Below, one piece after another: positions 1,046-21,226 of a stretch of 64,000 bases of DNA. A program made the translations under genes and the position numbers. Within the stretch, counting starts at the first letter, position 1; each line of letters begins with the position of its first letter. Where the stretch lies: contig JADLEU010000364.1 of NCBI GenBank assembly GCA_020845955.1, positions 11,958-75,957 of the forward strand, in the 5' to 3' direction. Origin of the DNA: Anaerolineales bacterium (GTDB lineage Bacteria > Chloroflexota > Anaerolineae > Anaerolineales > UBA6663). The notes under the pieces were generated by a model, which saw nothing but the letters and a program-made list of their open reading frames with translations, did not search any database and was not told the DNA's origin.

Positions 1046-1056
1046 GCGAGGCCGGT

Positions 1057-3919: not shown

Positions 3920-4957
3920 GTGCGTAAGGCTGCCCAGATCTTATTGGGCCTGGCCATCAGCCTGTTGGCTCTGGCGCTGGCGTTCCGCGGCGCAGACACG
4001 GCGCTCGTGGCCGCGGCGCTGCGCGGAGCCAACTACCTGTATCTCGTCCCAGGGATCGGCCTGATTTGGCTGGGCTTGTATCTACGCGCGCTAAGCTGGC
4101 GTGCCATTCTGGGCCATCAGGTCACGTACCGGCGCGTCTATGACGCGATGAATGAGGGGTACCTGCTCAATAACCTGCTGCCGTTCCGCCTGGGCGAGTT
4201 CGGCCGCGCCTACCTGATCAGCCGGGGCAGCTCGATCCCGGCCTACCAGGCGCTCTCTTCTGTGGTGGTCGAGCGCGTCATTGACTTGATCATGGCCGTG
4301 GTTCTGCTGCTGGCGTTTCTGCCGTATGTGATCGGCTTGGACCTGGCGCGGAGCGCCGCCCTGTCGTCGGTGCTGCTCGGCGTGGCAGCCCTGGCGGGCC
4401 TTGTCGTCACTGCCCGCCAGCAGGCGCGCGTCGTGCGCCTGGCCCGGGCGGTGCTCGAACGGCTGCCTGGGCTGCATGCCCAGCGCTGGGCGGCGCGGTT
4501 GGAAGCGGCCCTGGCCGGCCTCTCGGTCTTTCAAGACCCGCGCCGCGCGCTGGCAGCCGGCGGGTGGTCCTTCCTGGCCTGGGTAGCGGCTGGCCTGGGC
4601 GCCTGGTTCACGCTGTTGGCGTTTCTGCCGGGCGCGACCCCGGTGATGGGGTTTGTGGTGCTGACGGTGGTGGCCCTGGCGGCCGCGGTGCCGTCGCTGC
4701 CCGGCTCGGCCGGCGTGTTTGAGTTGACGATCGTGACGGTCCTGGCCGTCTTTGGGATCGACAACAACCGCGCCCTGAGTTTTGGCCTGATCTTCCATGC
4801 GCAGCAGATTGTCCTGACCATGATCTTGGGCGGACTGGCCCTGGCGCGGGAAGGCGAGACGCTGGCCCACCTGGCGCGCTCGGCCCGAGCCTTCGTGCGC
4901 CCGGCCCGGCCAAACGGCAGCGCGTTGGCGCCTAAGCCGCTCTCTTCCGATCAATGA
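3920..4957 (+). CDS. Lysylphosphatidylglycerol synthase TM-domain / flippase-like membrane protein (UPF0104)
   Basis: Multiple TM helices; NNLLPFRLGEFGR, VVVERVIDL and PSLPGSAGVFE motifs. Confidence 0.88.
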   Translation: MRKAAQILLGLAISLLALALAFRGADTALVAAALRGANYLYLVPGIGLIWLGLYLRALSWRAILGHQVTYRRVYDAMNEGYLLNNLLPFRLGEFGRAYLISRGSSIPAYQALSSVVVERVIDLIMAVVLLLAFLPYVIGLDLARSAALSSVLLGVAALAGLVVTARQQARVVRLARAVLERLPGLHAQRWAARLEAALAGLSVFQDPRRALAAGGWSFLAWVAAGLGAWFTLLAFLPGATPVMGFVVLTVVALAAAVPSLPGSAGVFELTIVTVLAVFGIDNNRALSFGLIFHAQQIVLTMILGGLALAREGETLAHLARSARAFVRPARPNGSALAPKPLSSDQ

Positions 4958-6114
4958 AAGTCCTGGTCTCGCTGACGTACTACCGCCCGCACGTCTCGGG
5001 CCTGACGATCTACGCCGAGCGCCTGTCGCGCGCGCTGGCCGCTCGCGGCCATGCCGTCACCGTGCTGACCTCGCAATACGATCGCGCCCTGCCGCGGCGC
5101 GAGTGCCTGCACGGGGTCGACATCATCCGCGTCCCGGTCCTGATGCGCGTCAGCAAGGGCGTGATCATGCCCACGATCGGCTGGGAGGCTACGCGCCTGG
5201 TCCCGGCCCACGATGTGCTCAGCCTGCACCTGCCGCAGTTGGACGCGACCGGGCTGGCGGTGCGCGGCCGGCTGTTCCGGCGCCCGGTGGTGGTCACCTA
5301 CCATTCGGACCTGATCCTGCCGCGCTCGCCCATCAACTGGCTGGCCCAAACCGTCTCAGACCTGGGCAACGACGCGGTGGCGCGCCTGGCCGACCGGCTG
5401 GTGGCCTACACCGACGACTTTGCCCGGCACTCGCGCTACCTGTCGAAGCATCTCGACAAGGTGACGGTCATACCCCCGCCGGTGGAGATGCCGACCCCAA
5501 GCCTCGAGGCCATTCAGGCGTTTCGCGAGCGCCACCATCTCAATGGCTCAGGGCCGGTGATCGGCCTAGCCGTGCGGCTGGCGGCGGAGAAGGGGGTTGA
5601 ATACCTGCTGGAGGCGCTGCCGCGCATCCTGGAGCGCTATCCGCGGGCGCGCGTTCTGCACGCCGGGCCGCGCGAGGCGATTGGCGAGGCCGCTTACCTG
5701 CAGAAGCTGGAGCAATTGATCGACGGCTATCGCGACCGCTACACGTTTGTGGGCACGCTGGATGCCGAACAAATGGCGGTGTTCTTCAGCAATTGCGACG
5801 TGCACGTGCTGCCCAGCATCAACAACACCGAGACCTTTGGCCTGGTGCAGATCGAGGCGGCCCTGAGCGGGACGCCCACCGTGGCCAGCGCGCTGCCCGG
5901 CGTGCGGATGCCGACGCGGATGACGGGCATGGGCCTCAGCGTGCCGCCGCGCGATCCAGCGGCGCTGGCGGAGGCCATCCTCGACGTGCTGGCCCGCCGT
6001 GGCCACTACGTGCGGCCGCGCGGTCCCATCGCGGCGCAGTTTGCGCCGGCAGCCACGGCCGCGCAGTACGAGCAGATCTTCACGGAGTTGCTGGCGGCCA
6101 GGCGCAAGGCCTAG
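4954..6114 (+). CDS. Glycosyltransferase family 4 (GT-B)
   Basis: YYRPHVSG N-terminus; RLAAEKGVEYLL; ETFGLVQIEA (EX7E) motif. Confidence 0.92.
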   Translation: MKVLVSLTYYRPHVSGLTIYAERLSRALAARGHAVTVLTSQYDRALPRRECLHGVDIIRVPVLMRVSKGVIMPTIGWEATRLVPAHDVLSLHLPQLDATGLAVRGRLFRRPVVVTYHSDLILPRSPINWLAQTVSDLGNDAVARLADRLVAYTDDFARHSRYLSKHLDKVTVIPPPVEMPTPSLEAIQAFRERHHLNGSGPVIGLAVRLAAEKGVEYLLEALPRILERYPRARVLHAGPREAIGEAAYLQKLEQLIDGYRDRYTFVGTLDAEQMAVFFSNCDVHVLPSINNTETFGLVQIEAALSGTPTVASALPGVRMPTRMTGMGLSVPPRDPAALAEAILDVLARRGHYVRPRGPIAAQFAPAATAAQYEQIFTELLAARRKA

Positions 6115-6135
6115 CAAGCAGCAGCGCGGCAAGGC

Positions 6136-6930
6136 GTGACGGATCGCGACGATCTGCTCTGGCGCAACCTGAAGGACCTCCCGGCGTTCCGGGGGCTGCT
6201 GCGGGCGGTCGAGGCGCGCTTTTACCAGGATCTGCCGCTGCCCGAGCCGGTGCTGGACCTGGGCTGCGGTGACGCCCACTTTGCCGCGGTGGCCTTTGAC
6301 CGGCCCCTGGCGGCCGGCGTGGATCCCTGGACGCCGCCTCTGCGCGAGGCCCGCCGGCTGCGCCGCTCGACCTACACCCTGCTGGCGCAGGCCGAGGGCG
6401 GGCGGCTACCGTTCCCCAACTGCTACTTCGCCAGCGCCATGAGCAACTCGGTGCTGGAGCACATTCCAATTGTGGAGCCCGTGCTGGCCGAGGTGGCCCG
6501 CGTGCTGCGGCCTGGGGCCCAATTCATCTTTTGCGTGCCCAGCGAATACTTCCTTGAGTTCCTGTCTCTCTCGGCCGGGCTGCGCCGGATTGGGCTGCGC
6601 GGCGCGGCCGAGCTCTATCAGCGCTGGTTCAACCGGATTTCGCGCCACTACCACTGTGACGGGCCGCCGGTGTGGCGGCAGCGGCTCGAGGCGGCTGGCA
6701 TGCGGTTGGAGCAGTGCTGGTACTACTTCTCCCCGGCCGCGCTGCGTGCCCTGGAGTGGGGCCACTACCTGGGCCTGCCGGCCGCTGTAGCGCACGCATT
6801 GACCGGCCGCTGGGTATTGGCGCCAACCCGCGCAAACCTGGCCATTACCGAGCGCCTGCTGCGGCCCTTCTTCGCCGAGGCTCGCCCCGCGAAGGGCGCC
6901 TATCTTTTCTTCATCGCGCGCAGAAACTAG
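6136..6930 (+). CDS. Class I SAM-dependent methyltransferase
   Basis: VLDLGCGD motif I; LPFPNCYF; SNSVLEHI; RVLRPG. Confidence 0.88.
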   Translation: MTDRDDLLWRNLKDLPAFRGLLRAVEARFYQDLPLPEPVLDLGCGDAHFAAVAFDRPLAAGVDPWTPPLREARRLRRSTYTLLAQAEGGRLPFPNCYFASAMSNSVLEHIPIVEPVLAEVARVLRPGAQFIFCVPSEYFLEFLSLSAGLRRIGLRGAAELYQRWFNRISRHYHCDGPPVWRQRLEAAGMRLEQCWYYFSPAALRALEWGHYLGLPAAVAHALTGRWVLAPTRANLAITERLLRPFFAEARPAKGAYLFFIARRN

Positions 6931-6937
6931 AGCCCGC

Positions 6938-6946
6938 TGGTAGAAT
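6938..6946 (+). promoter_or_regulatory. Extended -10 promoter element (TGgTAGAAT)
   Basis: TGn-TAGAAT immediately after the methyltransferase stop. Confidence 0.55.
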
Positions 6947-6995
6947 ATCAGGATTGGCGGCCAGGGTGTCTGAGCCGCCGGTGTTTGTGGCTGTC

Positions 6996-9338
6996 ATGCA
7001 ACCGACTCCCTCGCTGCTCGATTGGCTTCGATTTAAGCTGGGGCGCCCACGCGTCCAGCGCGCCTTCCGCTTCGGGTTGGCCGGGTTGGCCCTGCTGTTG
7101 GGCCTGGCGCAATTGCTGACTTCCGGCGGCCAGGCCGTGGGGGCCTTCTTTTTCCTGGGCGCCGGTATTGGCCTGGGCTTCTGGGGGCTATCGGTGCGGC
7201 CCGCCCGCGGACCGGAGTTCGATTTGCCCGAACTGGGCCTGGGCGCGCGGCCGGCGCCGGCCGCGGCCATCGACCTGACCACGAGCGCGGAGAGCGCCGC
7301 GGCCAGTCGAGCCCGGCGGCGGCAGATCCTGGCGAGCCTGTGGCTGCCTTCGGCGCTGCTGCTGGCCGCCTGGGGCCAGGGGCTGCTGATCAACGGTCCC
7401 GAACTCGCGCGGCCGGGCGCGGCGCTGCTGGCGCTGGGCGCCCTTGTATTTGCCAGCACTCTATTTCTCGACCGGTTGCTCGGTGCGCCGCGCGCCCTGG
7501 CCGTGCCCCAGGAGAGGCCGCTGACCTTTCGCTGGTGGCTGCTGGCGGTGGGCGTGGTGGGCGGGGTGTATGCCTTCCTGGCCGCCGGAGGCAATCAGTT
7601 TCGCCTGGGCGGGGTCATCGCCTGGATCATCAGCGTGGCAGCCTGGCTGGGCGCGGTGTGGGAATGGCCAATGCCGGCAGCCGAGATCTGGAAGCGAGTC
7701 CAGAGGCGCGCGGCCGCGGTGATGCAGCCCGATGGCCTGCAACTGCGCCTGTCGTGGCTGGCCATGGCCTTCCTGGCTGTCTTGGCCGTGGGGGCGTATT
7801 TCCGATTCGCTCAATTAGCGTCCATCCCGCCCGAGATGACGTCGGACCACGTCGAGAAACTGTTTGACGTCAACGACCTGCTCGGCGGACAGCGCCGGGT
7901 GTTTTTTGAGCGCAACACCGGCCGCGAGCCGCTGCAGTTCTATTTCGCCGCGCTGGTCATCCGCTGGCTGGGAACCGGCCTGACCATGCTGACCCTGAAG
8001 ATCACCAGCGCGGTGGCCGGTTTCCTGATGCTGCCTTTCCTATTTTGGCTGGGCCGCGAACTGGAAGACGACCTGCTAGGGCTGCTGGCGATGCTGCTGG
8101 CCGGCGTGGGCTTCTGGGCGACGGCCATCAGCCGGGTGGGGCTGCGCTTCCCGCTGACGCCGCTGTTCGTGGCGCCGATGCTGCTGTTCTTCTTGCGCGG
8201 CGCGCGGCGCGGCGGCCGGAACGACTTTCTGCTGTCCGGCCTGTTTCTGGGCCTGGGCCTATATGGGTACAGCACCATCCGGATGGCGCCGGTGCTGATC
8301 ATGGCCGCGGCCGTCTGGCTGTTGATGTGGCCGCCGGCCGGGATCACCCGCCGGGCGCTGGTGGGCAACACGGTCTTGCTGTTCGCCACGGCCTTCGTCG
8401 TGTTTGTGCCGCTGTACCGCTATGCCACCGAGCCAGACAACCTGTTCTGGTATCGGTCGTTCTCGCGCCTGAGCGGCGCCGAACAAGCGATCAATGGCTC
8501 GCCGCTGCGGATCTTTCTGAGCAACAACTGGAACGCGCTGCGCATGTTCAACTACACGGGCGACGACGTTTGGGTCAACACGCTGCCCGGCAAGCCGGTC
8601 CTCGACTTCATCACGGGTGCCTTGTTTGTCCTGGGCGCCGTGTTTCTGCTGGCGCGGCTGATCTGGCGCCGCGACCGGATCGCGGGCTTGCTGCTGCTCG
8701 CGATTCCAATCCTGCTGCTGCCGTCGACGCTCAGCGTGGCCTTCCCGGAGGAGAACCCGTCGGTCGTGCGCGGGGGCGGCGCTATCCCGGTCGTATTTCT
8801 GATCGCGGCCTATCCGCTCTGGCTGCTCTGGCAGCACGAACGCAGGCTGTGGCCTTCGGCGCGGGGGCGCTGGCTGGCGGCCGGCGGGCTGGGACTGCTG
8901 CTCCTGATGGTGACACTGGCCAACCGGGAAATGTACTTTCGGCGCTACCCGGCCCAGTACATTGGCTCGGCGCAGAATGCTTCAGAGATCGGCCGGGCCG
9001 TTCGGGATTTCGCGGAGTCGATCGGCAGCTACGACCGGGCCTGGATTTGCCTGCACCCACACTGGGCTGACACACGCGCTGTTGGGTTGTATGCCGGGCG
9101 GGCCGGCTGGGAGCAGGTGCTGCCGGCCGAGGAGTTGACCAGCCTTAGCGGCGACCCGCGACCGCTGCTGCTGGTCATCAATCCGCGCAGCGATGCCTGT
9201 CTGGCGGCGGCCCGCAGCGCTTTTCCAACCGGCACGCTGTCGCTGTTCCAATCACAGCGCGGTACGGACAAGGATTTCCTGCTGTTCTTCGTGCCCGGCA
9301 CGCAGGATCTGGATGAGGGCACTCTGCCCTATGAATAG
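6996..9338 (+). CDS. GT-C fold (ArnT/PMT, GT39-like) integral membrane glycosyltransferase; start uncertain (6954-6996)
   Basis: More than 12 TM segments; IPPEMTSDHVEK loop, FERNTGREPL, SRVGLRFP, GLYGYSTIR; C-terminal extracytoplasmic domain. Confidence 0.8.
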   Translation: MQPTPSLLDWLRFKLGRPRVQRAFRFGLAGLALLLGLAQLLTSGGQAVGAFFFLGAGIGLGFWGLSVRPARGPEFDLPELGLGARPAPAAAIDLTTSAESAAASRARRRQILASLWLPSALLLAAWGQGLLINGPELARPGAALLALGALVFASTLFLDRLLGAPRALAVPQERPLTFRWWLLAVGVVGGVYAFLAAGGNQFRLGGVIAWIISVAAWLGAVWEWPMPAAEIWKRVQRRAAAVMQPDGLQLRLSWLAMAFLAVLAVGAYFRFAQLASIPPEMTSDHVEKLFDVNDLLGGQRRVFFERNTGREPLQFYFAALVIRWLGTGLTMLTLKITSAVAGFLMLPFLFWLGRELEDDLLGLLAMLLAGVGFWATAISRVGLRFPLTPLFVAPMLLFFLRGARRGGRNDFLLSGLFLGLGLYGYSTIRMAPVLIMAAAVWLLMWPPAGITRRALVGNTVLLFATAFVVFVPLYRYATEPDNLFWYRSFSRLSGAEQAINGSPLRIFLSNNWNALRMFNYTGDDVWVNTLPGKPVLDFITGALFVLGAVFLLARLIWRRDRIAGLLLLAIPILLLPSTLSVAFPEENPSVVRGGGAIPVVFLIAAYPLWLLWQHERRLWPSARGRWLAAGGLGLLLLMVTLANREMYFRRYPAQYIGSAQNASEIGRAVRDFAESIGSYDRAWICLHPHWADTRAVGLYAGRAGWEQVLPAEELTSLSGDPRPLLLVINPRSDACLAAARSAFPTGTLSLFQSQRGTDKDFLLFFVPGTQDLDEGTLPYE

Positions 9339-9376
9339 GCGGCACTCATCTCCTGTTGTCGTGCGCGTCTCTGTCC

Positions 9377-12300
9377 ATGACCGGATCTGATCCCACGCTC
9401 GGCGAACAAGCCGACAACCTGGCAGGCAACGGCGCCGACACGGGCGCGGCGATTGGGCCGCGCGCCGTTGTCTCGCCGCTGCCAGCTGGCAGCGGGGCCG
9501 AAGCCGCTGCCCCGCCGCTTCCGGCCGAGCCCGCCTCGGAACCGGCCGCCCGGCGGCCACTTGGGATCAAGCGCTCACGGCTCTTGGGCCTGGCGTTCGA
9601 CGCCGTCCTGATCCTGCTGATCGGCGCCGGCGTCGTCTTCCGCTTCAGTTGGGTCAACTGGAATGAAGACGCCGATCTGCACCCTGACGAATACGGGCTG
9701 ACGGGCACGCTGACGCAGCTAGCCATTCCCGCTACCCTGGGTGAGTACTTTAATACCCGCATTTCGCCGCTGAGTCCTTACCAGAAGTACGACGTGGACG
9801 GCACGCCGCTGCCGCCGAGCGCGGAGCATCGCATGCCCGACAACCGCATGCGCTGGGGCCAATGGCCACTGACGATCATCCGCTGGATGGCCGAGGCGAC
9901 TGGCAACACCGGCTACGGTGAGCTGCGCCTGATGGGCCGGCGCCTATCGGCCCTGGCCGATACGCTGGCGCTCGGCGTGATCTTCCTGATCGGTTGGCGG
10001 CTGCACAGCCGCCGCGTGGGCCTGATGGCGGCGGCACTCAGCGCGCTGTCGGTGATGCAGATCCAGCAGGCGCACTTCATGACGGCCGACAACTTCGGCA
10101 CGCTGTTCACCGCCCTGGCGATGTATGCGGCGGTTCGGGTGGCAACCGGGCCAGGGCCGGCCGCGGCGACAGACGATCGACGACCCTCGACGGACCCGGG
10201 CACGGCGCGGCCGGCGGCCGGCCGCCCGCCGGCGCTGGTCTGGTATGGGCTCTTCGGCCTGTTCTTTGGCCTGGCGCTGGCGTCGCGCATCAACCTGGCG
10301 CCGCTGGCGGCCGAAATCGTGGTTGCCGCGGTGATTGCCTATGCCGTCGATTGGCAGCGCGGCGCGCGTGACCGCGGCGGGCTGCTGAGTGAGGCGGCCC
10401 TGCGGCTGGGGTTGGCCGGCCTGGTGGCCGTGTTCACGTTCCGCGTGGCCCAACCCATGAGCTTTCGGGCCGAGACCGGTGACACGACCCTGCTGACCCT
10501 GAATCCCAATCCCGAATGGCTGGCGAGCATGGCGGTGGCTCAGGCCGAGTCCAGCGGGGAGGGTGGCGGCCCGCCTGGGGAGCAGTGGACGGACCGGCCG
10601 GCTCTAGTGTTTCCCTTCGTCAACATGGTGGTCTGGGGCATGGGCTTGCCGCTGGGGCTGATGGCCTGGGCGGGGCTGCTGTGGGCGGCCTGGCGCAGCT
10701 TCCAGCCCGCCGACGAGGTATCCTGGAAACTGCACGCTCTCCCGCTGACCTGGGCTGGCGGCTATTTCCTGTTCATGGGCACGCGCTGGGTCAAATCCAT
10801 TCGCTATTTCCTGCCCATCTATCCCTTCATGGCCCTGTTGGCCGCCTGGGCCATCGTGGCGCTGTGGAAGCTCGGCCGCGCTGATCACGCGGCGCGGCAA
10901 GCGGCGAGGAGCCAAGGGGATCGGGGGCCACAAGGGCGGGCCGCCGAGGGGGCCGCCTTTGACCAGCGCACGAGTCCCTCGCGCCGCCCCAGCCCCTGGT
11001 ATCGGCGGGCCGCTGTCCTGTTGGGCGCGCTCGTCCTCGGCGGAACCCTCGTCTGGGCCTGGGGCTTCACCAGCATCTACCGCAACACCAACACGCGGGT
11101 CACGGCAACGCGCTGGGTGTTTCAAAACGTCCCGGCGCCGTTGAACCTCCAGATCCAGACGATGGACGGCCTGCGCTCCGAGCCGCTCTCCGTGCCAGAC
11201 GGGCTGACCGTTGGCGCTGAAACGCCTTACCGGCTGCAATTTTCCGCTCCGGTGACCGGCACGCTCACGGGCATTTCGGCCGCCTACGCCAGCACGCTCT
11301 TTGGCCCTGGCGCCACCGCCAGCCTGCAGGTCGTGCTGGCGGGCGACCCGGAAGGCCAACAGCCGCTGGCGGCGGCCGAGCTTGTGGCTGCGCGGCCGGG
11401 CAGCGACCCGCGCGGCGCGCCGGCCGCGGCCGCTCTGGGCCCGGCGACGCTGGTGAACGGGCAGACCTATTACCTGCTCCTGCGGGCCACGACCGGCGCC
11501 GCGGTGCAGTTTCAGTCGACCGTCCTTGCTCACGAGGAGTGGGATGAAGCCCTGCCCATTCGCATGGATGGGCGCGATCCCTTTGGGGGGATGTACCGCG
11601 GCCTGTCGATGCTGGTGCGAGGCGTCGACGATGAGAACAAACGGCAGATGTTCATCAGCAATCTGGCGCAGGCCGACCTCGTCATCCTGCCCAGCCAGCG
11701 CGGCTTGTGGAGCGCCTCGCGGCTGCCCAACCGCTATCCGCTGACTCTGGAGTATTACCGCGCGCTGTTCGACGGCCGCCTGGGCTTCGAGCTCGCCGCG
11801 CAATTCCAGTCGCCCATCCGGCTCGGCCCGCTGCAGATCTCCTCCGAAGCCGGCACCTGGGCTTGGGGCCACGCCCCGCCCAACCCGCCGCCGGCCTGGT
11901 ACCCCTTCAACGACAACCCCCTGGCAGCCGAGGAGGCCTTCAGCGTCTACGACCACGCGCCTGTCTGGATCTTCAAGAAGCGCGCCGATTTCAGCCTGGC
12001 TCGGGTGGAGGCGGTGCTCAACGCGGTCGACCTCAGCACCGTGGTCAACCAGGGGCCGCGGGAGGCCACCCGGACACCCACGCTCTTCCGGCTGCCGCCC
12101 GACCGCCTGGCCGAGCTGCGCGCGGGCGGCACGTGGAGCGCGATGTTCGATTTCGACGGGCTGCTCAACCGCCACGAGTGGCTGGGCGTCCTGGTCTGGT
12201 ACCTGGCCGTGCTTCTGATGGGCTGGGCGGCCTTCCCGCTGGCCTTTGTCGCCTTCTCGGGCTTGCCCGACCGCGGCTATCCGTTGGCCAAAACGTTCGC

Positions 12301-14881
12301 GCTGCTGGTGACGACCTGGCTCGTCTGGCTGGCGGCCAGCTATCGGGTGCTGCCCTTCAACCGCGGCGCCATCGCGCTGAGCTTCGCGGCGCTGGCGGCC
12401 GGTTCGGCACTGGTCTATCACCGGCGGCGAGCCGAGATCAACGCCTTCGTGTTCGCCCACCGGCGTGCGCTCCTGGTAACGGAGGGCCTGACGCTGGCGC
12501 TGTTCGCCTTCGACCTGCTGCTGCGCTGGGGCAACCCAGACTTGTGGCACCCGAACTTCGGCGGCGAGAAGCCAATGGTCTTTTCGTTTTTCAATGCTGT
12601 CCTGAAGAGCGAGTCCTTCCCGCCGTACAACCCCTGGCTGGCCGGCTACGCCCTGAACTACTACTACTATGGCTTTGTCATTGTGGCGATGCTCACCAAG
12701 CTGCTCGGCATTGTGCCGGCCTTCGCCTACAACTTGATCCTGCCGACCTTGTTTGCGCTGGTGGGCGGCGGGGCCTATAGCGTTGCATACAACCTGGTCG
12801 CGGCCAAGCGCGAGGCTGAACCCAGCGCCGGACCGGCGCGCGCCGCCGGATCGGATGGCGCCGGGCAGCAAGACACCACACGCTGGCTTGCGGAGGCGGA
12901 GAAGCCGGCGCCGGCGGACTCGATGGCTGAGGCCGCCGTGAGCGAACTCGGCCCGGCGCCCTCGGAAGCCGTCGACGCCGCCTCTTCGATGGCGGCCGGC
13001 CTCCGGCTGGTAAGCGCGCCCTGCCTGCCGCGGGCCAACCCCTACTTGGCCGGCATCGCCGCGGCCATGCTGGTCGTGGTGCTTGGCAATCTGGCCCAGG
13101 TTCACACCTTCCTGGCCGGGTTCCAGGACGCGGCCGACCCCGCGACCGTCGAGCGCTCGCTCCTGGGGAACAATGATGTCAGCCGAACGCTGAACGGCTT
13201 CTGGCGTGTGGCGACGGGGGCGACCCGATTGCCGGTGGGCACCGGGGATTGGTATTGGGATGCGACGCGGATCGTGACCATTCTGCTGCCCGAGAATAGC
13301 AACGAGATCACGGAGTTCCCGTTTTTCACGTTCTTGTACGCCGATCTGCACGCGCACATGATCGACCTGCCCTTTACGCTGCTGTCGTTGGGATGGGCGT
13401 TGAGCTACCTGTTGGCCGCGCGGCAGGGCGGGGGGCGCCGGGACTGGCTGGAGTGGGGAGCGGTATGGCTGGTGGGCGGACTGGCGCTGGGCGCGCCGCG
13501 CGCCACCAATACCTGGGACTACCCGCTCTTCCTGGCGCTGGGTGTGGCCGCCGTTGCGGCCGGCGAGTGGCGGCGCGCTCCCCAAGTATCGCGGGCCACG
13601 CTGTTTGCCATTGGCTGGCGCGTGGCTCTGCTGGCCGGGCTGGCGCTGGCCTGCTACCAACCCTTCGACCAGTGGTTCGCGGCTGCCTATGGCCAGGTAA
13701 AGCGCTTCGAGGGCAACGCCCAGCCGATCAGCGCCTATCTCTACATCTACGGGCTGTTCCTATTCATCGTGGTCAGCTTCCTGGGGTGGGAGACCGTCCG
13801 CTGGCTGGCCGAGACCCCGGCAACGGTCTTGACTCGCGCGGGCGAGTGGCTGCCGCCGGTCGTGCTGGGCGCGCTGGCGCTGGTTGGCGCCGTGGGCGTC
13901 TCTTGGTTTGTGCTGGAGGTGCCCATCGGCGTCATCACGCTGCCGCTGATGACCTGGGCTGGGCTGCTGCTGCTCCGGCCAGGCGGCAGCTTGCCGCTGG
14001 CCAAACGGGCCGTGCTCTTCTTGATCGGCGCCGCCCTGGCGATGACGCTCTTCGTGGAGGTGTTCGTCCTCGAAGGCGACCGCATGAACACGATCTTCAA
14101 GTTCTACATCCAGGTGTGGGTGCTGCTGAGCGTGGCCGGCGGGGCGGCCCTGGCCTGGGTCTGGAGCGCGCTGCCGCGCTGGCCGTCTGGCTGGCGCACG
14201 GCCTGGACCAGCCTGCTGGCGGTGCTGGTGGCAGCGGCGGCGCTCTATACCGTCACGGCCAGCGCGGCTAAGACCCGCGATCGCTTCCCCGGCCTGATTG
14301 CCCAGCCCGGCAGCGGCTGCAGTCCCATCGCGGGAATGGCGCTGCCCTACGATCGCGGCCTGCCGGTTGACGAGCAGCCGCACAGCCTGTACGGCCTCGA
14401 CTACATGACCTGGAGCGCGTACTGCGACCATGACGCGTTCCTGCCGCTGGCCTACGATCATGAGGCCATCCGCTGGCTGCAGGATAACGTGGGCGGCTCG
14501 CCCGTGATCGTCGAGGCGCAATCGTTTGATTTGTACCGGATGTCAAGCCGTTATACCTGGAACACGGGCCTGCCCGACGTGGTGGGCTGGGATTATCACA
14601 CGCGCCAGCACAACGCCGCCATCCCGACCGAGTTTATCACCCAGCGCGGCACGGAGATTACGAGCTTCTACACGACCGGCTCGCCGGAAGAAGCGTTGGC
14701 CTTCCTGCACAAATATGACGCGCGGTACGTCATCGTCGGCCCCATGGAGCAGGCCTACTATGCCGCCAGCGGCGGGCTGGCCAAGTTCAACGCGCTCGTT
14801 GCGCGCGGCGACCTCAGCATCGCCTATCAGAACCCCGGCGTGACCATCTTTGCGGTGACTGGCCCCCCGGCGGCTCAGTGA
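9377..14881 (+). CDS. Very large membrane protein: N-terminal GT39-like module, extracytoplasmic domain, C-terminal DUF2298 (Chlor_Arch_YYY) module
   Basis: LHPDEYG and WVKSIRYFLP in the N-terminal module; GGEKPM, LNYYYYG, DLHAHM, NTWDYP and RMNTIFKFY in the C-terminal module. Confidence 0.85.
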   Translation: MTGSDPTLGEQADNLAGNGADTGAAIGPRAVVSPLPAGSGAEAAAPPLPAEPASEPAARRPLGIKRSRLLGLAFDAVLILLIGAGVVFRFSWVNWNEDADLHPDEYGLTGTLTQLAIPATLGEYFNTRISPLSPYQKYDVDGTPLPPSAEHRMPDNRMRWGQWPLTIIRWMAEATGNTGYGELRLMGRRLSALADTLALGVIFLIGWRLHSRRVGLMAAALSALSVMQIQQAHFMTADNFGTLFTALAMYAAVRVATGPGPAAATDDRRPSTDPGTARPAAGRPPALVWYGLFGLFFGLALASRINLAPLAAEIVVAAVIAYAVDWQRGARDRGGLLSEAALRLGLAGLVAVFTFRVAQPMSFRAETGDTTLLTLNPNPEWLASMAVAQAESSGEGGGPPGEQWTDRPALVFPFVNMVVWGMGLPLGLMAWAGLLWAAWRSFQPADEVSWKLHALPLTWAGGYFLFMGTRWVKSIRYFLPIYPFMALLAAWAIVALWKLGRADHAARQAARSQGDRGPQGRAAEGAAFDQRTSPSRRPSPWYRRAAVLLGALVLGGTLVWAWGFTSIYRNTNTRVTATRWVFQNVPAPLNLQIQTMDGLRSEPLSVPDGLTVGAETPYRLQFSAPVTGTLTGISAAYASTLFGPGATASLQVVLAGDPEGQQPLAAAELVAARPGSDPRGAPAAAALGPATLVNGQTYYLLLRATTGAAVQFQSTVLAHEEWDEALPIRMDGRDPFGGMYRGLSMLVRGVDDENKRQMFISNLAQADLVILPSQRGLWSASRLPNRYPLTLEYYRALFDGRLGFELAAQFQSPIRLGPLQISSEAGTWAWGHAPPNPPPAWYPFNDNPLAAEEAFSVYDHAPVWIFKKRADFSLARVEAVLNAVDLSTVVNQGPREATRTPTLFRLPPDRLAELRAGGTWSAMFDFDGLLNRHEWLGVLVWYLAVLLMGWAAFPLAFVAFSGLPDRGYPLAKTFALLVTTWLVWLAASYRVLPFNRGAIALSFAALAAGSALVYHRRRAEINAFVFAHRRALLVTEGLTLALFAFDLLLRWGNPDLWHPNFGGEKPMVFSFFNAVLKSESFPPYNPWLAGYALNYYYYGFVIVAMLTKLLGIVPAFAYNLILPTLFALVGGGAYSVAYNLVAAKREAEPSAGPARAAGSDGAGQQDTTRWLAEAEKPAPADSMAEAAVSELGPAPSEAVDAASSMAAGLRLVSAPCLPRANPYLAGIAAAMLVVVLGNLAQVHTFLAGFQDAADPATVERSLLGNNDVSRTLNGFWRVATGATRLPVGTGDWYWDATRIVTILLPENSNEITEFPFFTFLYADLHAHMIDLPFTLLSLGWALSYLLAARQGGGRRDWLEWGAVWLVGGLALGAPRATNTWDYPLFLALGVAAVAAGEWRRAPQVSRATLFAIGWRVALLAGLALACYQPFDQWFAAAYGQVKRFEGNAQPISAYLYIYGLFLFIVVSFLGWETVRWLAETPATVLTRAGEWLPPVVLGALALVGAVGVSWFVLEVPIGVITLPLMTWAGLLLLRPGGSLPLAKRAVLFLIGAALAMTLFVEVFVLEGDRMNTIFKFYIQVWVLLSVAGGAALAWVWSALPRWPSGWRTAWTSLLAVLVAAAALYTVTASAAKTRDRFPGLIAQPGSGCSPIAGMALPYDRGLPVDEQPHSLYGLDYMTWSAYCDHDAFLPLAYDHEAIRWLQDNVGGSPVIVEAQSFDLYRMSSRYTWNTGLPDVVGWDYHTRQHNAAIPTEFITQRGTEITSFYTTGSPEEALAFLHKYDARYVIVGPMEQAYYAASGGLAKFNALVARGDLSIAYQNPGVTIFAVTGPPAAQ

Positions 14882-14908
14882 AAGGCGCTGGCCGCGTGTA
14901 TAACCCTC

Positions 14909-17731
14909 GTGCCTGCTGATTGGGTCGCCTTTCTCGCCTGGTACCTGGCCGCTTCGGCGGCGGGCTTCTTGGCCTTGCCGATTGCGTTTCAGTTCTTTCG
15001 GCGCCTGCCCGATCGTGGCTACGCGCTGGCGCGGCCCCTGGGGCTGCTGCTGATCGGCTACGTCTTTTGGCTGCTGGGATCGTTGGGCCCGTTGCGCAAC
15101 GACGTGCCCGGGATCCTGTTCGCGGCGCTGTTGGTCGGCGGGCTGGGGGGCGCCTGGCTCGGGCGGGCGGGCCTTGGGGAGCTGCGCCGTTGGCTGGCCG
15201 CCCAGCGCGCCACGGTCCTAGCGGTGGAGGCTCTGTTTTTGGCGGCCTTCACGCTGATGGCCCTCGTCCGCGCTTACAACCCCGACATCTTCGGCACCGA
15301 GAAGCCGATGGAATACATGTTCATCAACAGCATCCTGCGCAGCCCGGCATTTCCGCCGCAGGATGCCTGGCTGTCCGGCCATGCCATCAGCTACTACTAC
15401 TTCGGCTATGTCCTGGTCGCCATGCTGGCCCGGCTCACGGCGACCAACTCAGCCGTTGCCTTCAATCTAGGCCTGGCCCTGCTGTTCGCGTTGACGGCCG
15501 TCGCCGCGCAGGGGGTGACGCTCAACCTGATCGCGCTGGCATGGCCGCGAGTGGTCAGCACAGGCGACGGTGCGGCGGCTGAGGCGCCCGCCGGCACGTC
15601 TGCCCGGCTGCGCCGCGCCTTTTGGCCCGCGCTGCTGGGGCCGGCGCTGGTGCTGGTCGCCGGCAATTTCTACGGGCTCGTTCAGTTGGCCTACACCAAT
15701 GGCTGGTGGCCCGAGGCGCGGGTGTGGGCCGTCCGCTACTATTTTGGCGCTGAAGACCCGGCCAACACCGGGCGCAGCGCCGAGGCCGTATCTCCGCTGC
15801 CGCCGGAGCAGGACACCCCCCGCGTCCGCGCCGGTTGGGTCAACCTGTGGGACTGGCTGGACCTCAAGCAAGCGCAGGACCCCACGCCGGTCCGAGCCAG
15901 TTTCACCTGGGACGTTGGCGGCAATTGGTTTTTCGGCGCGCGGGTGCTGCACGACCGCGGCTTGTTGGGCCGGGAGGTGGAGGCCATCGACGAGATGCCG
16001 TCCTTCTCCTTCATACTGGGCGACATGCACCCGCACGTGCTGGCGCTGCCCTTTGTTGTGTTGGCCATCGGCCTGGCGCTGGAGTGGTTGCTGTGGGGCG
16101 CGGGCCTGCCCGACGAGGCTGAGGAGACCGGTGGCGAGGCCTTTGCGTTCGCGCGCGCCAGCCTGCGCCGTTCGGCCACCCTGGTTCGCTTGGGCGTGTC
16201 GGGCATTATTCTTGGCGGCCTGGCCTTTCTCAACACCTGGGACTTCCCGATCTATTTGTTTCTGACGGTGATGGCCCTGGCAATCGGCCTCGGGCTCCGG
16301 CGCGGCTGGGTGGCGCTCGCGGCCGATGGGGGGCGGCTGGCGCTGCTGGGCGGCGGGCTGGCGGTGCTCAGCGTTGCGCTGTATTTCCCGTTCTACGTCA
16401 CCTTCCAGTCGCAGGCCGGCGGCCTCTTGCCTAACCTGATCTGGCCCACGCGCTTTCAGCAGACGGTGGTGTTCTTCGGACCCGTGCTGGTTGGGGTGAC
16501 GGTCTACCTCGCCTGGTTGGCCGCACGCGCGGGGCCGGTACTCGACCGGCACGCGGCCCTGTGGTTCGGGTTGGGCTTAGTCGGGGTGCTGGTCTTGGTC
16601 GTGCTGGTGATGGCGGCGGCGGCGCTGCGGAGCCCGGCCCTGGGTAGTTTCATCGACGGCTTTATCAGCCCGCTTACTCGCGGCCAGGCGATGCGCCTAG
16701 TCCTGGCCCGCCGGCTGGTGGACAGCCTGGCCACGCTCTACCCGGCCGCGGTGGCCGGGCTTGGTGTTGGTGTGACGGTCGGGACGCTGCGGCTCGTGCT
16801 GAAGCCGCAATCTAGCCTGGAGGCCGCGCCGCCTGAGCCGCGGGCACAACCGGCCGCGGCGGCCGTCAGCGGGAGGCGCCTGGCCAGCCCGGCCGCCGCG
16901 CTGCGCGAGGCGCGGGCGCGCCCCTGGCGCCGGCAGCGCTCGGCCCCGCCACCTCCGGCCGGCCGCGCGGGCCTGGTGTGGCGATCGCCCGCCCTGCTTA
17001 TGGCGCTGGCTATGATCGTCACCGGTGCGCTGCTGCTCGTCGGCCCTGAATGGGTCTACCTGCGCGACAACTTCGGCCATCGCATGAACACGCTCTTTAA
17101 GTTTTACTTTCAGACCTGGACCTTGTGGGCGCTGGCGGGGGCCTTCGGGCTCTGGCACATCTTGCAGCATGCGCGGCCAGCCGGACGCTGGGCGGCGGGC
17201 AGCATTATGGGCCTGGCGATGGCCGGCAGCCTGGTGTATACGCTGCCCAGCCTGTACAGCAAGACCGGCGGGTTCGCGTCGGAGCCAACCCTTGACGGCA
17301 TGGCCTTCTTTGCCCAGCGTTTTCCCGACGACTGGGCCGCCATCGAATGGCTGCGCGCCAACGCCGCCGGCGCGCCGGTGATTGCGGAGGCCGTTGGCGG
17401 CGCTTACCAAATCGAAGAGAGCCGCATTTCCATGGCCACCGGGCTGCCGACCGTGATGGGCTGGGTCAACCACGAGGGCCAGTGGCGCGGCGATTACTAC
17501 TCCGAAGTGGCCGACCGTCCGAGCCGCATCGAAACGCTCTACCAGGTGCGCGATTGGGAAATGGCCCGCGAAGTCCTTGAGGAATTCGGCATCGAATACG
17601 TGATCGTCGGAACACAGGAGCGCAGGCAGTATAATCCGGTGTATGAGCCAAAATTCGACGTGCACATGGATAGCGTGTTTGAGACCCCTAATCTGACCAT
17701 CTATCGGCGCAAGCCGCTCCCGGCCCAATGA
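14909..17731 (+). CDS. DUF2298 (Chlor_Arch_YYY) domain membrane protein
   Basis: GTEKPME, ISYYYFG, GDMHPHV, NTWDFP and RMNTLFKFY parallel the C-terminal half of the upstream gene. Confidence 0.87.
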   Translation: MPADWVAFLAWYLAASAAGFLALPIAFQFFRRLPDRGYALARPLGLLLIGYVFWLLGSLGPLRNDVPGILFAALLVGGLGGAWLGRAGLGELRRWLAAQRATVLAVEALFLAAFTLMALVRAYNPDIFGTEKPMEYMFINSILRSPAFPPQDAWLSGHAISYYYFGYVLVAMLARLTATNSAVAFNLGLALLFALTAVAAQGVTLNLIALAWPRVVSTGDGAAAEAPAGTSARLRRAFWPALLGPALVLVAGNFYGLVQLAYTNGWWPEARVWAVRYYFGAEDPANTGRSAEAVSPLPPEQDTPRVRAGWVNLWDWLDLKQAQDPTPVRASFTWDVGGNWFFGARVLHDRGLLGREVEAIDEMPSFSFILGDMHPHVLALPFVVLAIGLALEWLLWGAGLPDEAEETGGEAFAFARASLRRSATLVRLGVSGIILGGLAFLNTWDFPIYLFLTVMALAIGLGLRRGWVALAADGGRLALLGGGLAVLSVALYFPFYVTFQSQAGGLLPNLIWPTRFQQTVVFFGPVLVGVTVYLAWLAARAGPVLDRHAALWFGLGLVGVLVLVVLVMAAAALRSPALGSFIDGFISPLTRGQAMRLVLARRLVDSLATLYPAAVAGLGVGVTVGTLRLVLKPQSSLEAAPPEPRAQPAAAAVSGRRLASPAAALREARARPWRRQRSAPPPPAGRAGLVWRSPALLMALAMIVTGALLLVGPEWVYLRDNFGHRMNTLFKFYFQTWTLWALAGAFGLWHILQHARPAGRWAAGSIMGLAMAGSLVYTLPSLYSKTGGFASEPTLDGMAFFAQRFPDDWAAIEWLRANAAGAPVIAEAVGGAYQIEESRISMATGLPTVMGWVNHEGQWRGDYYSEVADRPSRIETLYQVRDWEMAREVLEEFGIEYVIVGTQERRQYNPVYEPKFDVHMDSVFETPNLTIYRRKPLPAQ

Positions 17732-19518
17732 CGACCCGCTCCCCTGCCCTGAGCCTTGAGAACGCCTTGTACGGCCTGATCTTCCTGGCCGCCCTTGGCC
17801 TGCGCCTCCTGAATCTGGGCGCGCACCCGCTCAACGATGGCGAGGCGCATGAGGCCTTGGCGGTGCTGGCGCAACTGCGCGGCCACGCCGACCCGACGCT
17901 CGTCCCGAGCAGCCCGGCGTACTTCTTCATCACCTATTTCAGCTTCCTGATCTTTGGCGCCAGCGAAGCCGCGGCCCGCTTGGGTCCGGCGCTGGCGGGC
18001 TCTGTGTTGGTGCTGGTGCCCAGCCTCTTCCGCGACCTGTTGGGACGCCCGGCCGCCCTGGCCGCCAGCGGAATGTTGGCTGTGTCCGCCAGCCTGCTGG
18101 CTGCGTCGCGCAGCGCGGATGGCACGCTGCTGGTCTTGTTGGCGCTGGCCATAGTAGTTGGGGCGCTGTGGCGCTTCCTCCAGGGCGGTCGCACCGCCTG
18201 GCTGTTGGCCGCGGGGGCGGCGCTGGGGTTTGGCGTCGCCGGAGGCAGCAGTTTTGTGCTGGGTCTGTTGTCGCTCAGCGGAGCGGGTTTGATTCTGCGC
18301 TGGACGCTGCCCCGGGTGGCCGCTGGCCTGCGGCCGGCAGCCGCCCGTCTCTGGCAGGAGCGGCGCCCGTTCTTTGCGGCCGTGGGGCTTTCGGCCGTTG
18401 TCGTTTCCACCGTGGCATTGGTCTACCTGCCCGGGCTGGGCGCGCTGTTGGACGCCTGGATGGGCGGGCTGGCCGGCTTTGTGCCCGCGCAGACCGGCCG
18501 GCTCCCATTTGAACTCATCCTGTTCCTGGTGGTGGACGAGCCCCTGGTAGTTATCCTGGGCGCGATTGGAGCGGCGCGCGCGTTCCGCACGGGCCACCTG
18601 CTGGGCCAAGCCCTGAGCTGGTTCGCCTTGGTGGCTTTGGCCTTGCTGCTGGTGTACGGCAACCGGCAGGTGATCGACGTGGCGTGGGTGGCGGCGCCGT
18701 TGGCCCTCCTCGCCGGGTATGCCTTGTTCGAGCTGCTGCAGGCGGTCTGGGCCCCGAGCGAGTTACCGTTGGCCCTGGTGCAGGCTGGCGTGACCGCGGC
18801 GCTGCTGGGCTTTGCGCTCCTCAACCTGGCCGCGCTGGCCGAGACCGCCCGCACCGGCAGCTTTGCAGCCTACCAGCTGCAGATCTTTGGACAAACGCTT
18901 CGGGTTCCATCGCTGGCGCAGTTGGGCATCGCGGCGCTGGCGGTCGCGCTGGCGTTTGTGATTGGCTATCTGGTTGCCCTGGGCTGGTCTGAAAGAGCGG
19001 CCCAACTCGGCCTGGTCACGGCGCTGAGCGGGCTGCTGTTTGCCATGACGCTGGCGGCCGGCTGGGGGGTGACCCAGCGCCAGCCGGGCAGCCCAGCAGA
19101 GTTGTGGTGGGCGGAGCCAGCCTCCCCGGAGGTGTCCCTCCTGGTCGCAACCCTGGAAAACGTGTCCAATTACTCAGGCGCCCACCCGCGCGACATCGAC
19201 GTCACCGTGCAGGCATCAGAAACCGGCTTGCTGGCCTGGGCGCTGCGCGACTTTCCACATGCCAGCTTCGTGGATCGGCTCGACCCGGTCGTGACGAGCC
19301 CGGTGGTCATTGCGCCGCTGGCTGACCAGGAAAACCCAACGCTGGGCTCAACGTACGTTGGCCAGGACTTCGACCTGCGGTCGCGCTGGACCCCAGACCA
19401 AACCGGTCCTGAATGGATAGTCTGGCTGGCCTACCGCCAGGCGCGGACGATCGTAACCGAACCGGTGGTGCTGTGGGTGCGCCAGGATCTGGCGCAGCTG
19501 CAGAGCACAGGGAACTAG
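17728..19518 (+). CDS. GT-C-like polytopic membrane protein (TIGR03663-like)
   Basis: LRLLNLGAHPLNDGEA N-terminal loop, AAARLGPALAG, about 13 TM segments, C-terminal PLAWALR-like (LLAWALRDF) soluble domain; ATGA overlap. Confidence 0.7.
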   Translation: MTTRSPALSLENALYGLIFLAALGLRLLNLGAHPLNDGEAHEALAVLAQLRGHADPTLVPSSPAYFFITYFSFLIFGASEAAARLGPALAGSVLVLVPSLFRDLLGRPAALAASGMLAVSASLLAASRSADGTLLVLLALAIVVGALWRFLQGGRTAWLLAAGAALGFGVAGGSSFVLGLLSLSGAGLILRWTLPRVAAGLRPAAARLWQERRPFFAAVGLSAVVVSTVALVYLPGLGALLDAWMGGLAGFVPAQTGRLPFELILFLVVDEPLVVILGAIGAARAFRTGHLLGQALSWFALVALALLLVYGNRQVIDVAWVAAPLALLAGYALFELLQAVWAPSELPLALVQAGVTAALLGFALLNLAALAETARTGSFAAYQLQIFGQTLRVPSLAQLGIAALAVALAFVIGYLVALGWSERAAQLGLVTALSGLLFAMTLAAGWGVTQRQPGSPAELWWAEPASPEVSLLVATLENVSNYSGAHPRDIDVTVQASETGLLAWALRDFPHASFVDRLDPVVTSPVVIAPLADQENPTLGSTYVGQDFDLRSRWTPDQTGPEWIVWLAYRQARTIVTEPVVLWVRQDLAQLQSTGN

Positions 19519-19540
19519 CGGTTGGAGGCGGGCAGTCCGC

Positions 19541-19593
19541 CGTCTGACCACGCCCCTGCTGCCGCCGATCCCTGCCTACCAACGTCTGACCAC
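19541..19593. repeat. 11-bp direct repeat CGTCTGACCAC x2, 42-bp period
   Basis: Copies at 19541-19551 and 19583-19593 in the gap before cmk. Confidence 0.6.
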
Positions 19594-19602
19594 CGTGGCG
19601 AG

Positions 19603-20322: not shown

Positions 20323-20339
20323 CGCCAGCGGCTGGCCGC

Positions 20340-21014: not shown

Positions 21015-21210
21015 CTTCTGGCTCGCTCTGGATCGCCTGGCAGCGCTCAGCGCCGCCGTCATCGATGACCAGCGCGGCTCAGCCCATCGGCGTTCTCCTT
21101 AACGGAGCGACCCACTGGATTAGGGCGGTCTGGCCGGCCGGCGGGCCGCCGGCCGGCGCGGAGATCGATGTCTGGGTTGGGAGCGCGCTCGGCCTAGAGG
21201 GGTCAGCTTG
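20998..21210 (+). pseudogene. Decayed small inorganic pyrophosphatase-family gene
   Basis: MNPPDSFWLALDRL..VIDDQRGSAH, stop TAA 21100, PLD-TAG-G (PLDYG expected), then a +1 frameshift into AEIDVWVGS. Confidence 0.7.
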
Positions 21211-21226
21211 TAGTAAGATAACACGT

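Follow-up and report, generated by a model that had tools for sequence, protein, structure and literature searches.

What does a bacterium build with five membrane-embedded glycosyltransferase modules encoded side by side, and on which face of the membrane? The question is raised by a locus of an Anaerolineales bacterium of the phylum Chloroflexota (assembly GCA_020845955.1; 6.06 Mb in 431 contigs, ~68% G+C). In a 64,000-nucleotide stretch of contig JADLEU010000364.1 (C364 in our numbering), hereafter the window, genes for a flippase-like protein, a family 4 glycosyltransferase (GT4) and a methyltransferase are followed by four large membrane-protein genes at 6996-19518, given the working names gtcA, gtcB, gtcC and gtcD, whose products hold five modules resembling glycosyltransferases of the C fold class (GT-C). 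The kind of system is a known one, namely extracytoplasmic glycan assembly by GT-C proteins with priming in the cytoplasm. We propose, giving the idea about an even chance of being right, that the locus encodes a conserved envelope-glycan assembly line that would work on both membrane faces. Its genes are as follows.

3920..4957, + strand: flippase-like membrane protein (UPF0104, MprF flippase domain, 'PplT'; PF03706, E 1e-52)
4954..6114, + strand: GT4 glycosyltransferase of the GT-B fold (Glyco_trans_1_4, Glycos_transf_1 and Glyco_transf_4 domains)
6136..6930, + strand: soluble methyltransferase dependent on S-adenosylmethionine (SAM) (Methyltransf_11, E 2.5e-12)
6996..9338, + strand: gtcA, GT-C-like module 1, 780 aa (PMT_2, 20.9 bits, sub-threshold)
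9356..14881, + strand: gtcB as a whole, 1841 aa, modules 2 and 3 fused
9356..12310, + strand: gtcB N-terminal half, GT-C module 2, ~985 aa (AlphaFold2 fold match)
12311..14881, + strand: gtcB C-terminal half (residues 986-1841), DUF2298/YYY module 3 (TIGR03662, 453 bits)
14909..17731, + strand: gtcC, DUF2298/YYY module 4, 940 aa (TIGR03662, 477 bits)
17728..19518, + strand: gtcD, PMT_2 or distant Agl23-like module 5, 596 aa (PMT_2, 36.7 bits)

The initial annotation had counted five GT-C-like modules in ~12.5 kb, two of them with a YYY motif, and this count was borne out by gene calls, Pfam and NCBIfam searches, AlphaFold2 folds and hhalign comparisons. Both gtcC (476.6 bits) and the C-terminal half of gtcB (453.3 bits) scored above the TIGR03662 cut-off of 300.25 and matched PF10060 (DUF2298) at E 5e-100 and E 7e-104, respectively; the YYY motif lies at residue 162 of gtcC and residue 1102 of gtcB. 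The PMT_2 family (PF13231) was matched by gtcD at 36.7 bits, above the gathering cut-off of 26.1, and by gtcA at 20.9 bits, under it. No Pfam or NCBIfam match was obtained for the N-terminal half of gtcB, and among PDB sequences nothing significant was found for any of the four membrane proteins, whether single sequences or profiles of 37-80 orthologues were used as queries. By hhalign, gtcA, which has an N-terminal extension of several helices, was related to gtcD at 94.6% probability and the N-terminal half of gtcB to gtcD at 88.8%, the conserved acidic first loops being aligned in both cases. That DUF2298 is simply a divergent PMT_2 was rejected, hhalign of DUF2298 against gtcD having shown no relation.

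Structure models of two modules were obtained with AlphaFold2 from alignments built from the loci of other genomes (gtcC, pLDDT 89.6 and pTM 0.92; N-terminal half of gtcB, pLDDT 84.1 and pTM 0.83). The six best PDB fold matches of gtcC were all GT-C proteins (five at E<1e-3), among them DPY19 (E 2.8e-5), AftA (1.5e-4) and STT3A (3.8e-3), with ArnT weaker (E 0.38). For the N-terminal half of gtcB, 34 PDB folds matched at E<1e-3 and all 34 were GT-C: AglB (1.2e-7), Pmt4, EmbA/B/C, STT3, ArnT, ALG12, Pmt1/2, AftA and ALG9, with PimE and AftB slightly lower. After its GT-C module this half carries an additional beta-sandwich and an alpha/beta domain on the extracytoplasmic side. The comparison of predicted structures with Pmt, ArnT and AglB that the initial annotation had named as a check on the GT-C fold thus came out in its favour for the two modules modelled. 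Five GT-C-like modules stand because two are supported by structure, one (gtcD) by a curated family match, one (gtcA) by profile similarity and one (the C-terminal half of gtcB) by belonging, like gtcC, to DUF2298.

These folds bring in another explanation, that the GT-C modules, chiefly the DUF2298 pair, sugar secreted, S-layer-like or lipoprotein substrates from polyprenyl-linked donors, much as PMT, DPY19 or AglB with AglS do. Since the nearest folds include DPY19, STT3 and AglB (DPY19 and STT3 at the top for gtcC; AglB, Pmt4 and STT3 the best for the N-terminal half of gtcB) and the C-terminal domain of gtcC resembles the C-terminal globular domain of AglB (TM-score 0.54 on the target, probability 1.0), protein glycosylation keeps a claim to consideration. 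It would also suit the proteinaceous lattice that forms the outer layer cover of Litorilinea (PMC13319060), and Ala/Pro/Thr/Ser-rich linkers are present, e.g. in the deacetylase encoded at 2-1045. We nevertheless consider it rather unlikely. AftA, Emb, ArnT and ALG proteins, whose substrates are glycans or lipids, match about equally; no module gave an STT3 Pfam domain at E<=0.01, and the WWD[YWFN]G motif is absent from all four GT-C-like proteins. Five modules with a GT4 enzyme and a phospholipid-type flippase exceed the needs of known bacterial O-mannosylation, the characterised pairings of this flippase domain with a sugar transferase in the literature searched belong to glycolipid pathways, and the candidate acceptor, the deacetylase, is non-syntenic in relatives. 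The pathway inferred in the initial annotation, one decorating S-layer or other proteins or a wall polymer, therefore survives in part: extracytoplasmic glycosylation is the natural reading, whereas nothing singles out S-layer or protein acceptors.

The comparison with the oligosaccharyltransferases STT3, AglB and PglB (family GT66) runs in the same two directions. Together with DPY19 they are among the best folds of both modelled modules, and an invariant I360-x-E362 in an outer loop of DUF2298 may correspond to their TIXE/SVSE motif, which it recalls. On the other side, the modules have no sequence-level similarity to these enzymes and no WWDYG, the number of helices before the first long outer loop differs, and DUF2298 proteins come in pairs of paralogues and as fusions.

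The position of the conserved residues bears on the question of the active face. Scored over 37-80 orthologues, the invariant or near-invariant residues comprised H109-P-D111-E112 after the first helix of the N-terminal half of gtcB, S283-D284 and E287-K288 of gtcA in the loop after the aligned helix, and E39 in the first loop of gtcD. In DUF2298 (gtcC numbering) they were E131-K-x-M-E135, P149-P-x-D152-x-W, Y162-Y-Y, R345, I360-x-E362-x-P, D372-x-H374-P-H376, N442-T-W-D445, R719-D720 and R725-x-N727-T-x-F-K-F-Y-x-Q-x-W, with E827, Y833, R839 and H855-x-x-Q858-W-R860 in the C-terminal domain. The same core is conserved in both DUF2298 paralogue lines (48 and 79 orthologues). The helix order of the gtcC model, combined with the positive-inside rule, places loop 30-42 (sequence RRLPDRGYALAR) and an Arg-rich disordered stretch at ~632-690 in the cytoplasm. 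On this topology all polar near-invariant DUF2298 residues and the C-terminal domain would lie on the outer face, and the conserved acidic residues near the N-termini of the modules would sit in extracytoplasmic loops. The topology of the gtcB fusion is coherent as well, since its N-terminal half ends in outer domains and these run into a first DUF2298 helix that passes from out to in.

The genes form one operon. A string on the + strand runs from the window start to ~24.5 kb with intergenic gaps of -4 to 65 nt, and 4-nt overlaps join the stop of the flippase-like gene to the start of the GT4 gene and the stop of gtcC to the start of gtcD; a scan for promoters and terminators gave matches solely within genes. 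Gene order in relatives was read from neighbourhoods in 17 genomes and 80 further loci of named Anaerolineae assemblies, including Anaerolineales, Thermoflexales, Caldilineales, Ardenticatenaceae, Brevefilum, Villigracilis, Leptolinea and Pelolinea. Most of the ~100 Anaerolineae loci with sufficient contig had the order flippase-like gene, GT4, methyltransferase, gtcA, gtcB, gtcC, gtcD, cmk, plsC, and the methyltransferase gene lies between GT4 and gtcA in most relatives. The initial annotation had placed the flippase-like, GT4 and methyltransferase genes with the GT-C genes, and this grouping is confirmed by the kept order; its starting point at 3920, in contrast, left out a translationally coupled flavoenzyme gene (2361-3881).

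A few of the sampled loci were rearranged. In G047 and three other loci two or three separate genes take the place of gtcB, in G036 gtcC has moved elsewhere, and G034 has an extra GT-C gene for a 594-aa paralogue like the N-terminal half of gtcB between the flavoenzyme and flippase-like genes (L035:3050-4831). In ~11 loci (L063, L065, L073, L089, L090, L104, L117, L118, L121, L123 and L130) a second gtcD-like gene of 1000-1500 aa stands 3' of gtcD in place of cmk. The number of GT-C modules thus varies among lineages. A 942-aa flippase fusion in L114 was discarded as an artefact, a LepA frame running into the flippase frame.

Could such order reflect chance neighbourhood or mere inertia, with no common pathway behind it? 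The housekeeping genes cmk and plsC are equally syntenic (cmk, usually with plsC, lies 3' of gtcD in most loci reaching that far), and therefore synteny alone is no proof of shared function; whether cmk and plsC are linked functionally to the cluster is uncertain. The overlapping stop and start codons, the fusion of modules in differing combinations, the conservation across the whole class and beyond, and the functional coherence of the families nevertheless leave a chance arrangement very improbable indeed.

The conservation is deepest for DUF2298. PF10060 was present in 61/61 relatives (18 families of the same order), most of which have one long fused copy (~1600-1900 aa) and one short copy (~800-940 aa), usually adjacent where both are on one contig. 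In the phylum as a whole it was found in 220/301 Chloroflexota genomes and was missing from several families, some with genomes of 1.4-2 Mb; in other Chloroflexota classes single proteins of 2500-2870 aa contain two DUF2298 modules, and a third gene accompanies them. The two paralogues almost always occur together, as do Pmt1-Pmt2 or EmbA-EmbB, and the modules probably work within one physical complex, since the present genome has two of them fused and the phylum shows fusions of other combinations. When 1.84 billion cluster representatives (50% identity) were searched with a DUF2298 profile, 10,238 proteins reached E<=1e-3 and 5,161 reached E<=1e-30; public names among the matches listed were 'YYY domain-containing protein', 'uncharacterized membrane protein', 'DUF2298 domain-containing protein' and 'hypothetical protein'. 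In the literature searched, DUF2298 is mentioned but its function is nowhere addressed, and its pairing and fusions and the architecture of the operon are undescribed. A control search found DUF2298 in Haloferax and Methanosarcina. The sharing of families with archaea that had been stated at the outset is thereby upheld, in agreement with archaeal UPF0104 neighbourhoods (PMC5898192), whereas the accompanying statement that the function of TIGR03663 is largely unknown is out of date, this family having since taken its name from Agl23 of Haloarcula hispanica, which is a putative flippase of hexose-P-dolichol (PMC11182771).

Comparison of the two DUF2298 paralogues of the window revealed a new feature: two near-invariant acidic residues and an arginine are gone from the fused module in this lineage. 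Against 48 orthologues, the C-terminal half of gtcB has V1075 (D in 92%), N1092 (D in 96%), H1752 (Q in 96%) and N1753 (R in 94%), the local sequences being GGEKPMVFSFFNAVLKSESFPPYNPW and GWDYHTRQHN, the latter GWNWHQRQQR in other orthologues (e.g. G025). All four changes are common to the nearest relative, G001 (L052; another genus, 67% identity), only, and as an inherited change this is therefore no assembly error. E1071, E1320, D1330, H1332, H1334, R1576 and N1578 are retained, and in gtcC every family-invariant residue is intact. The substitutions suggest that the fused DUF2298 module here is inactive or re-specialised; having lost acidic residues, it may partner the intact gtcC without being catalytic itself, or in a changed role.

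It is accordingly worth weighing whether all five modules are transferases: gtcD might instead be an Agl23-like flippase or scramblase, and the DUF2298 half of gtcB a dead scaffold in this lineage. We regard this as possible though doubtful; it is compatible with a lipid-anchored glycan, with protein glycosylation and with a donor-supplying role of the cytoplasmic-side genes (see below). For gtcD, the alignment covers nearly the whole TIGR03663 'Agl23' model (positions 4-428 of 435; E 8e-18), and purified Agl23 translocated lipid-linked M5GN2 in proteoliposomes (PMC11182771). The score of 64.6 bits is, however, below the family cut-off of 126.25, so that gtcD is a distant relative of Agl23 and no member of its family, and the invariant acidic E39 stands at the position of the GT-C catalytic loop. 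For the scaffold, the replacement of D, D and R by V1075, N1092 and N1753, inherited in common with G001, speaks in favour; the seven retained residues speak against, the loss of activity being deduced from three substitutions only.

Which lipid or polymer the modules would act on is best approached from the cytoplasmic-side genes. The flippase-like protein, with ~8 hydrophobic segments, matched PF03706 over its full length (180 bits, model positions 1-302 of 302) and TIGR00374 at 77.5 bits, above the cut-off of 43.2. The GT4 protein has Pfam GT4 domains on both halves and no hydrophobic segment; its sole full-length PDB sequence matches were to PimA (2gej, 4n9w; E 2e-9, ~40 bits). It scored 40.9 bits against the N-acetylglucosaminyl-phosphatidylglycerol (GlcNAc-PG) synthase model NF053787, far from the cut-off of 480, with a weak sub-threshold match to the monoglucosyldiacylglycerol (MGlcDAG) synthase model, and it thus shares only the GT4 superfamily with the GpgS-type GlcNAc-PG synthase.

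Pairs of this kind have been studied elsewhere. In Pseudomonas aeruginosa, GpgS (GT4), GpgD (a deacetylase) and GpgF (UPF0104 flippase-like) make glucosamine (GlcN)-phosphatidylglycerol (PMC12713373). The aminohexosyl glycolipid HNHDRG of Clostridioides difficile is made by HexS and HexD together with HexF, which is MprF-like, and synthesis inside, flipping and deacetylation outside have been proposed for it, in that order (PMC10128005). A preprint describes the same flippase domain, there called PplT, fused to GT-B transferases in Chloroflexi (bioRxiv 10.1101/2022.03.11.483950), and in archaea UPF0104 proteins are predicted flippases of glycosylation, with PMT/STT3-like arCOG00563 proteins and AglD-type transferases as neighbours (PMC5898192). 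From these precedents we propose a lipid that is glycosylated by GT4, methylated, flipped and extended by the GT-C modules. The chemical steps, all of which we infer, would be these: the flavoenzyme here, or a nicotinamide adenine dinucleotide (NAD)-dependent epimerase/dehydratase in many relatives, would first tailor the sugar; GT4 would transfer it from a nucleotide sugar onto a membrane lipid at the cytoplasmic face, the acceptor being diacylglycerol or the head group of a phospholipid; the methyltransferase would modify the product; the UPF0104/MprF-type flippase domain would move the glycolipid to the outer leaflet; and there the five GT-C modules would extend or branch it sugar by sugar from polyprenyl-phosphate sugars. 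The product would be a lipoglycan or a wall-linked glycan. That the experimental precedents for UPF0104 with GT4 in the literature searched are all in glycolipid synthesis favours such a lipid-anchored or wall glycan.

Additional genes in the related loci fit glycan tailoring and envelope control. An NAD epimerase/dehydratase gene was found in 20 of them, inside the cluster in 11 (between the flippase-like and GT4 genes in the examples read), and extra methyltransferases (Methyltransf_23/11 or FkbM-type) in 15. Extracytoplasmic function (ECF) sigma factors occur in 14 related loci and zf-HC2 anti-sigma proteins in 6, in the examples read after gtcB or gtcD (L044:14131-14736, L062:16475-17140, L104:15988-16512); neither is present in the window. 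These insertions hint at envelope-stress control of the operon.

The GpgSDF and HexSDF systems are alike in that a transferase stands beside a stand-alone flippase of the UPF0104/MprF type and, for GpgS, belongs to GT4 as here (HexS is annotated as a monogalactosyldiacylglycerol synthase); a deacetylase gene also lies in the same tight gene string of the window. They differ in ending at a small cationic glycolipid and lacking GT-C genes, and the deacetylase here is non-syntenic in relatives.

A longer product is made in mycobacteria and corynebacteria, where phosphatidylinositol mannosides, lipomannan and lipoarabinomannan (PIM/LM/LAM) depend on the GT4 enzymes PimA and PimB', the acyltransferase PatA, a flippase, and the GT-C proteins PimE, MptA/B, EmbC and Aft. 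The logic is the same as that proposed here: a cytoplasmic GT4 enzyme acts on a lipid, the product is flipped, and outside the membrane several GT-C proteins lengthen it, with polyprenyl-phosphate sugars as donors. Our GT4 has PimA as its sole full-length PDB sequence match, PimE, Emb, AftA and AftB are among the fold matches, PlsC-type acyltransferases are encoded downstream, and the genome holds a pair of ino1 and a CDP-alcohol transferase gene. This pair lies in another locus (L135, G000:C36:5000-19000), where ino1 (6650-7831, -) is followed by the gene for a 204-aa CDP-alcohol phosphatidyltransferase (6023-6637, -) and then by Lgt; judged by family, it would be the pair expected for bacterial synthesis of phosphatidylinositol phosphate, and it makes an inositol-lipid acceptor chemically possible. 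There are differences, however: by sequence the GT-C modules here belong to none of the mycobacterial families, the GT4 resembles PimA only weakly (~40 bits), the operon includes a UPF0104 flippase and a methyltransferase, and Ino1, although present in 54/61 relatives, was not found in the closed genome G036.

Several observations weigh against a lipid-anchored or wall glycan, and against the proposal as a whole. The nearest folds of DUF2298 include the protein-acting DPY19 and STT3, and its C-terminal domain is AglB-like. The Foldseek TM-scores are low (0.25-0.58), though the probabilities are 1.0, and the structure models are of gtcC and the N-terminal half of gtcB only, the GT-C assignment of gtcA and gtcD coming from PMT_2 and hhalign. 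Since G036, a single-contig genome in which Ino1 was not found, carries the operon, phosphatidylinositol is unlikely to be a universal anchor, unless inositol is imported, and as a candidate anchor of that kind it was weakened. The operon has no GT2-type polyprenyl-phosphate sugar synthase, and the only GtrA-like gene traced sits, with no GT2 adjoining, in a separate Wzy/ligase-type cluster (L137, G000:C13:4000-18000) together with genes for two Wzy_C/O-antigen-ligase-like proteins (one of 1064 aa), an NAD epimerase/dehydratase and a GT4. Finally, archaeal AglD fuses the UPF0104 domain to an enzyme that makes dolichol-phosphate mannose (PMC5898192), and the flippase-like protein and GT4 could by the same token supply the donor, not the acceptor.

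If that were so, the flippase-like protein, GT4 and the methyltransferase would make and flip a donor, with which the GT-C modules would decorate a polymer made elsewhere (a wall polysaccharide, a teichoic-acid-like polymer or peptidoglycan) by the logic of GtrA/GtrB/Gtr and CsbB/GtcA/YfhO. In such three-component systems a transferase on the cytoplasmic side and a small flippase serve a GT-C protein that modifies an envelope glycoconjugate outside; here GT2 is replaced by GT4 and GtrA by UPF0104, and there are five GT-C modules against one. UPF0104 forms the C-terminal half of AglD, the enzyme that loads mannose onto dolichol phosphate, and adjoins the PMT/STT3-like arCOG00563 in archaea (PMC5898192), while hexose-P-dolichol is handled by Agl23-type proteins (PMC11182771). 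The operon offers no other candidate donor synthase, and the same genome has the separate Wzy/ligase-type glycan cluster. Five GT-C modules for a single donor would be unusual, however, and the polyprenyl-phosphate sugar synthases characterised so far are, to our knowledge, inverting GT2 enzymes and not retaining GT4 enzymes. There is also no clean tie to peptidoglycan: FtsW/RodA are kept in 3/5 high-quality Chloroflexota genomes without DUF2298, and a strictly murein-linked product was dropped from consideration on that ground. A donor-supplying role is in our judgement improbable.

The archaeal Agl22/Agl23 neighbourhood remains the closest in composition outside bacteria, in that UPF0104 and a PMT_2/TIGR03663-like protein adjoin a sugar transferase and DUF2298 is common to archaea and Chloroflexota. 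It differs in having an AglD-type GT2 where GT4 is found here, and three genes (PMC5898192) instead of a five-module array. [quoted passage not shown]

The genes flanking the cluster, and one further membrane-protein gene of the window, are the following.

2..1045, + strand: lipoprotein-like polysaccharide deacetylase with an Ala/Pro/Thr/Ser linker (PF01522, E 9e-23; LTAC lipobox-like signal)
1042..2364, + strand: class-II 3-hydroxy-3-methylglutaryl coenzyme A (HMG-CoA) reductase (TIGR00532, 416 bits)
2361..3881, + strand: flavin adenine dinucleotide (FAD) enzyme of the PRK07208 family (NF005548, 685 bits)
19522..21976, + strand: cmk and two PlsC-type acyltransferases (TIGR00017, 194 bits; PF01553 twice; gaps of 3-50 nt)
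3' of the plsC genes and before the radical-SAM gene, + strand: dehydrogenase gene
22993..24477: radical-SAM gene, TIGR03279-like (361 bits, below the cut-off of 575)
34189..36024, - strand: open reading frame for a 611-aa polytopic membrane protein (~8 hydrophobic segments; YDYDQGEG loop after the first helix)

The flavoenzyme is probably an accessory sugar-nucleotide enzyme. Its best PDB sequence matches are eukaryote-type UDP-galactopyranose mutases (E 2e-17, residues 14-231), an ATGA overlap joins its start codon to the end of the HMG-CoA reductase gene, and it lies 38 nt 5' of the flippase-like gene; in G034, G025, G038 and G001 it likewise heads the cluster, adjoining the flippase-like gene or one gene earlier. 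The deacetylase and HMG-CoA reductase genes are coupled to the string in this genome only, and neither a deacetylase beside the cluster nor an HMG-CoA reductase homologue was seen in the other sampled loci. As a mevalonate-pathway gene beside a polyprenyl-dependent operon, the latter is suggestive. The deacetylase may be an accessory of this genome only. Its Thr/Ser/Pro-type linker, proposed earlier as an O-glycosylation acceptor, is indeed present, while its association with the cluster is not kept in relatives; the acceptor role is pure speculation, and by analogy with HexD an extracytoplasmic enzyme acting on the flipped glycolipid would be an equally good reading.

Downstream, the radical-SAM gene also follows the cluster in the nearest relatives (L050, L051, L054 and L055). 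Three nearest relatives have a gene for a 585-aa M14 zinc carboxypeptidase between gtcB and gtcC (L051:9741-11495, L054:8230-9984 and L055:8186-9946), which the window lacks. The protein encoded at 34189-36024, which the initial annotation (as 34189-35859) had taken for another GT-C and which possibly is one, had no support from Pfam, NCBIfam or hhalign and no significant match to the HMMs of the four modules.

The finding matters because the envelope layers of Chloroflexota, which are multilayered and sometimes diderm-like, yet without a BAM complex and a lipopolysaccharide pathway, are chemically unidentified (PMC13319060). Present in every relative sampled, tightly coupled and provided with five lipid-sugar-dependent modules, the operon is a concrete genetic candidate for one of these layers. 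More tentatively, DUF2298 may be a new GT-C family, an obligate paralogue pair with fused PMT-like partners, that builds such a layer, inner or outer, one partner being catalytic and the other degenerate in some lineages, with ancestry shared with an archaeal system. An envelope-glycan role would give DUF2298, a family common to Chloroflexota and archaea, its first function, and the paralogue-pair reading, if true, would bear on the puzzle of monoderm versus diderm-like organisation in this phylum.

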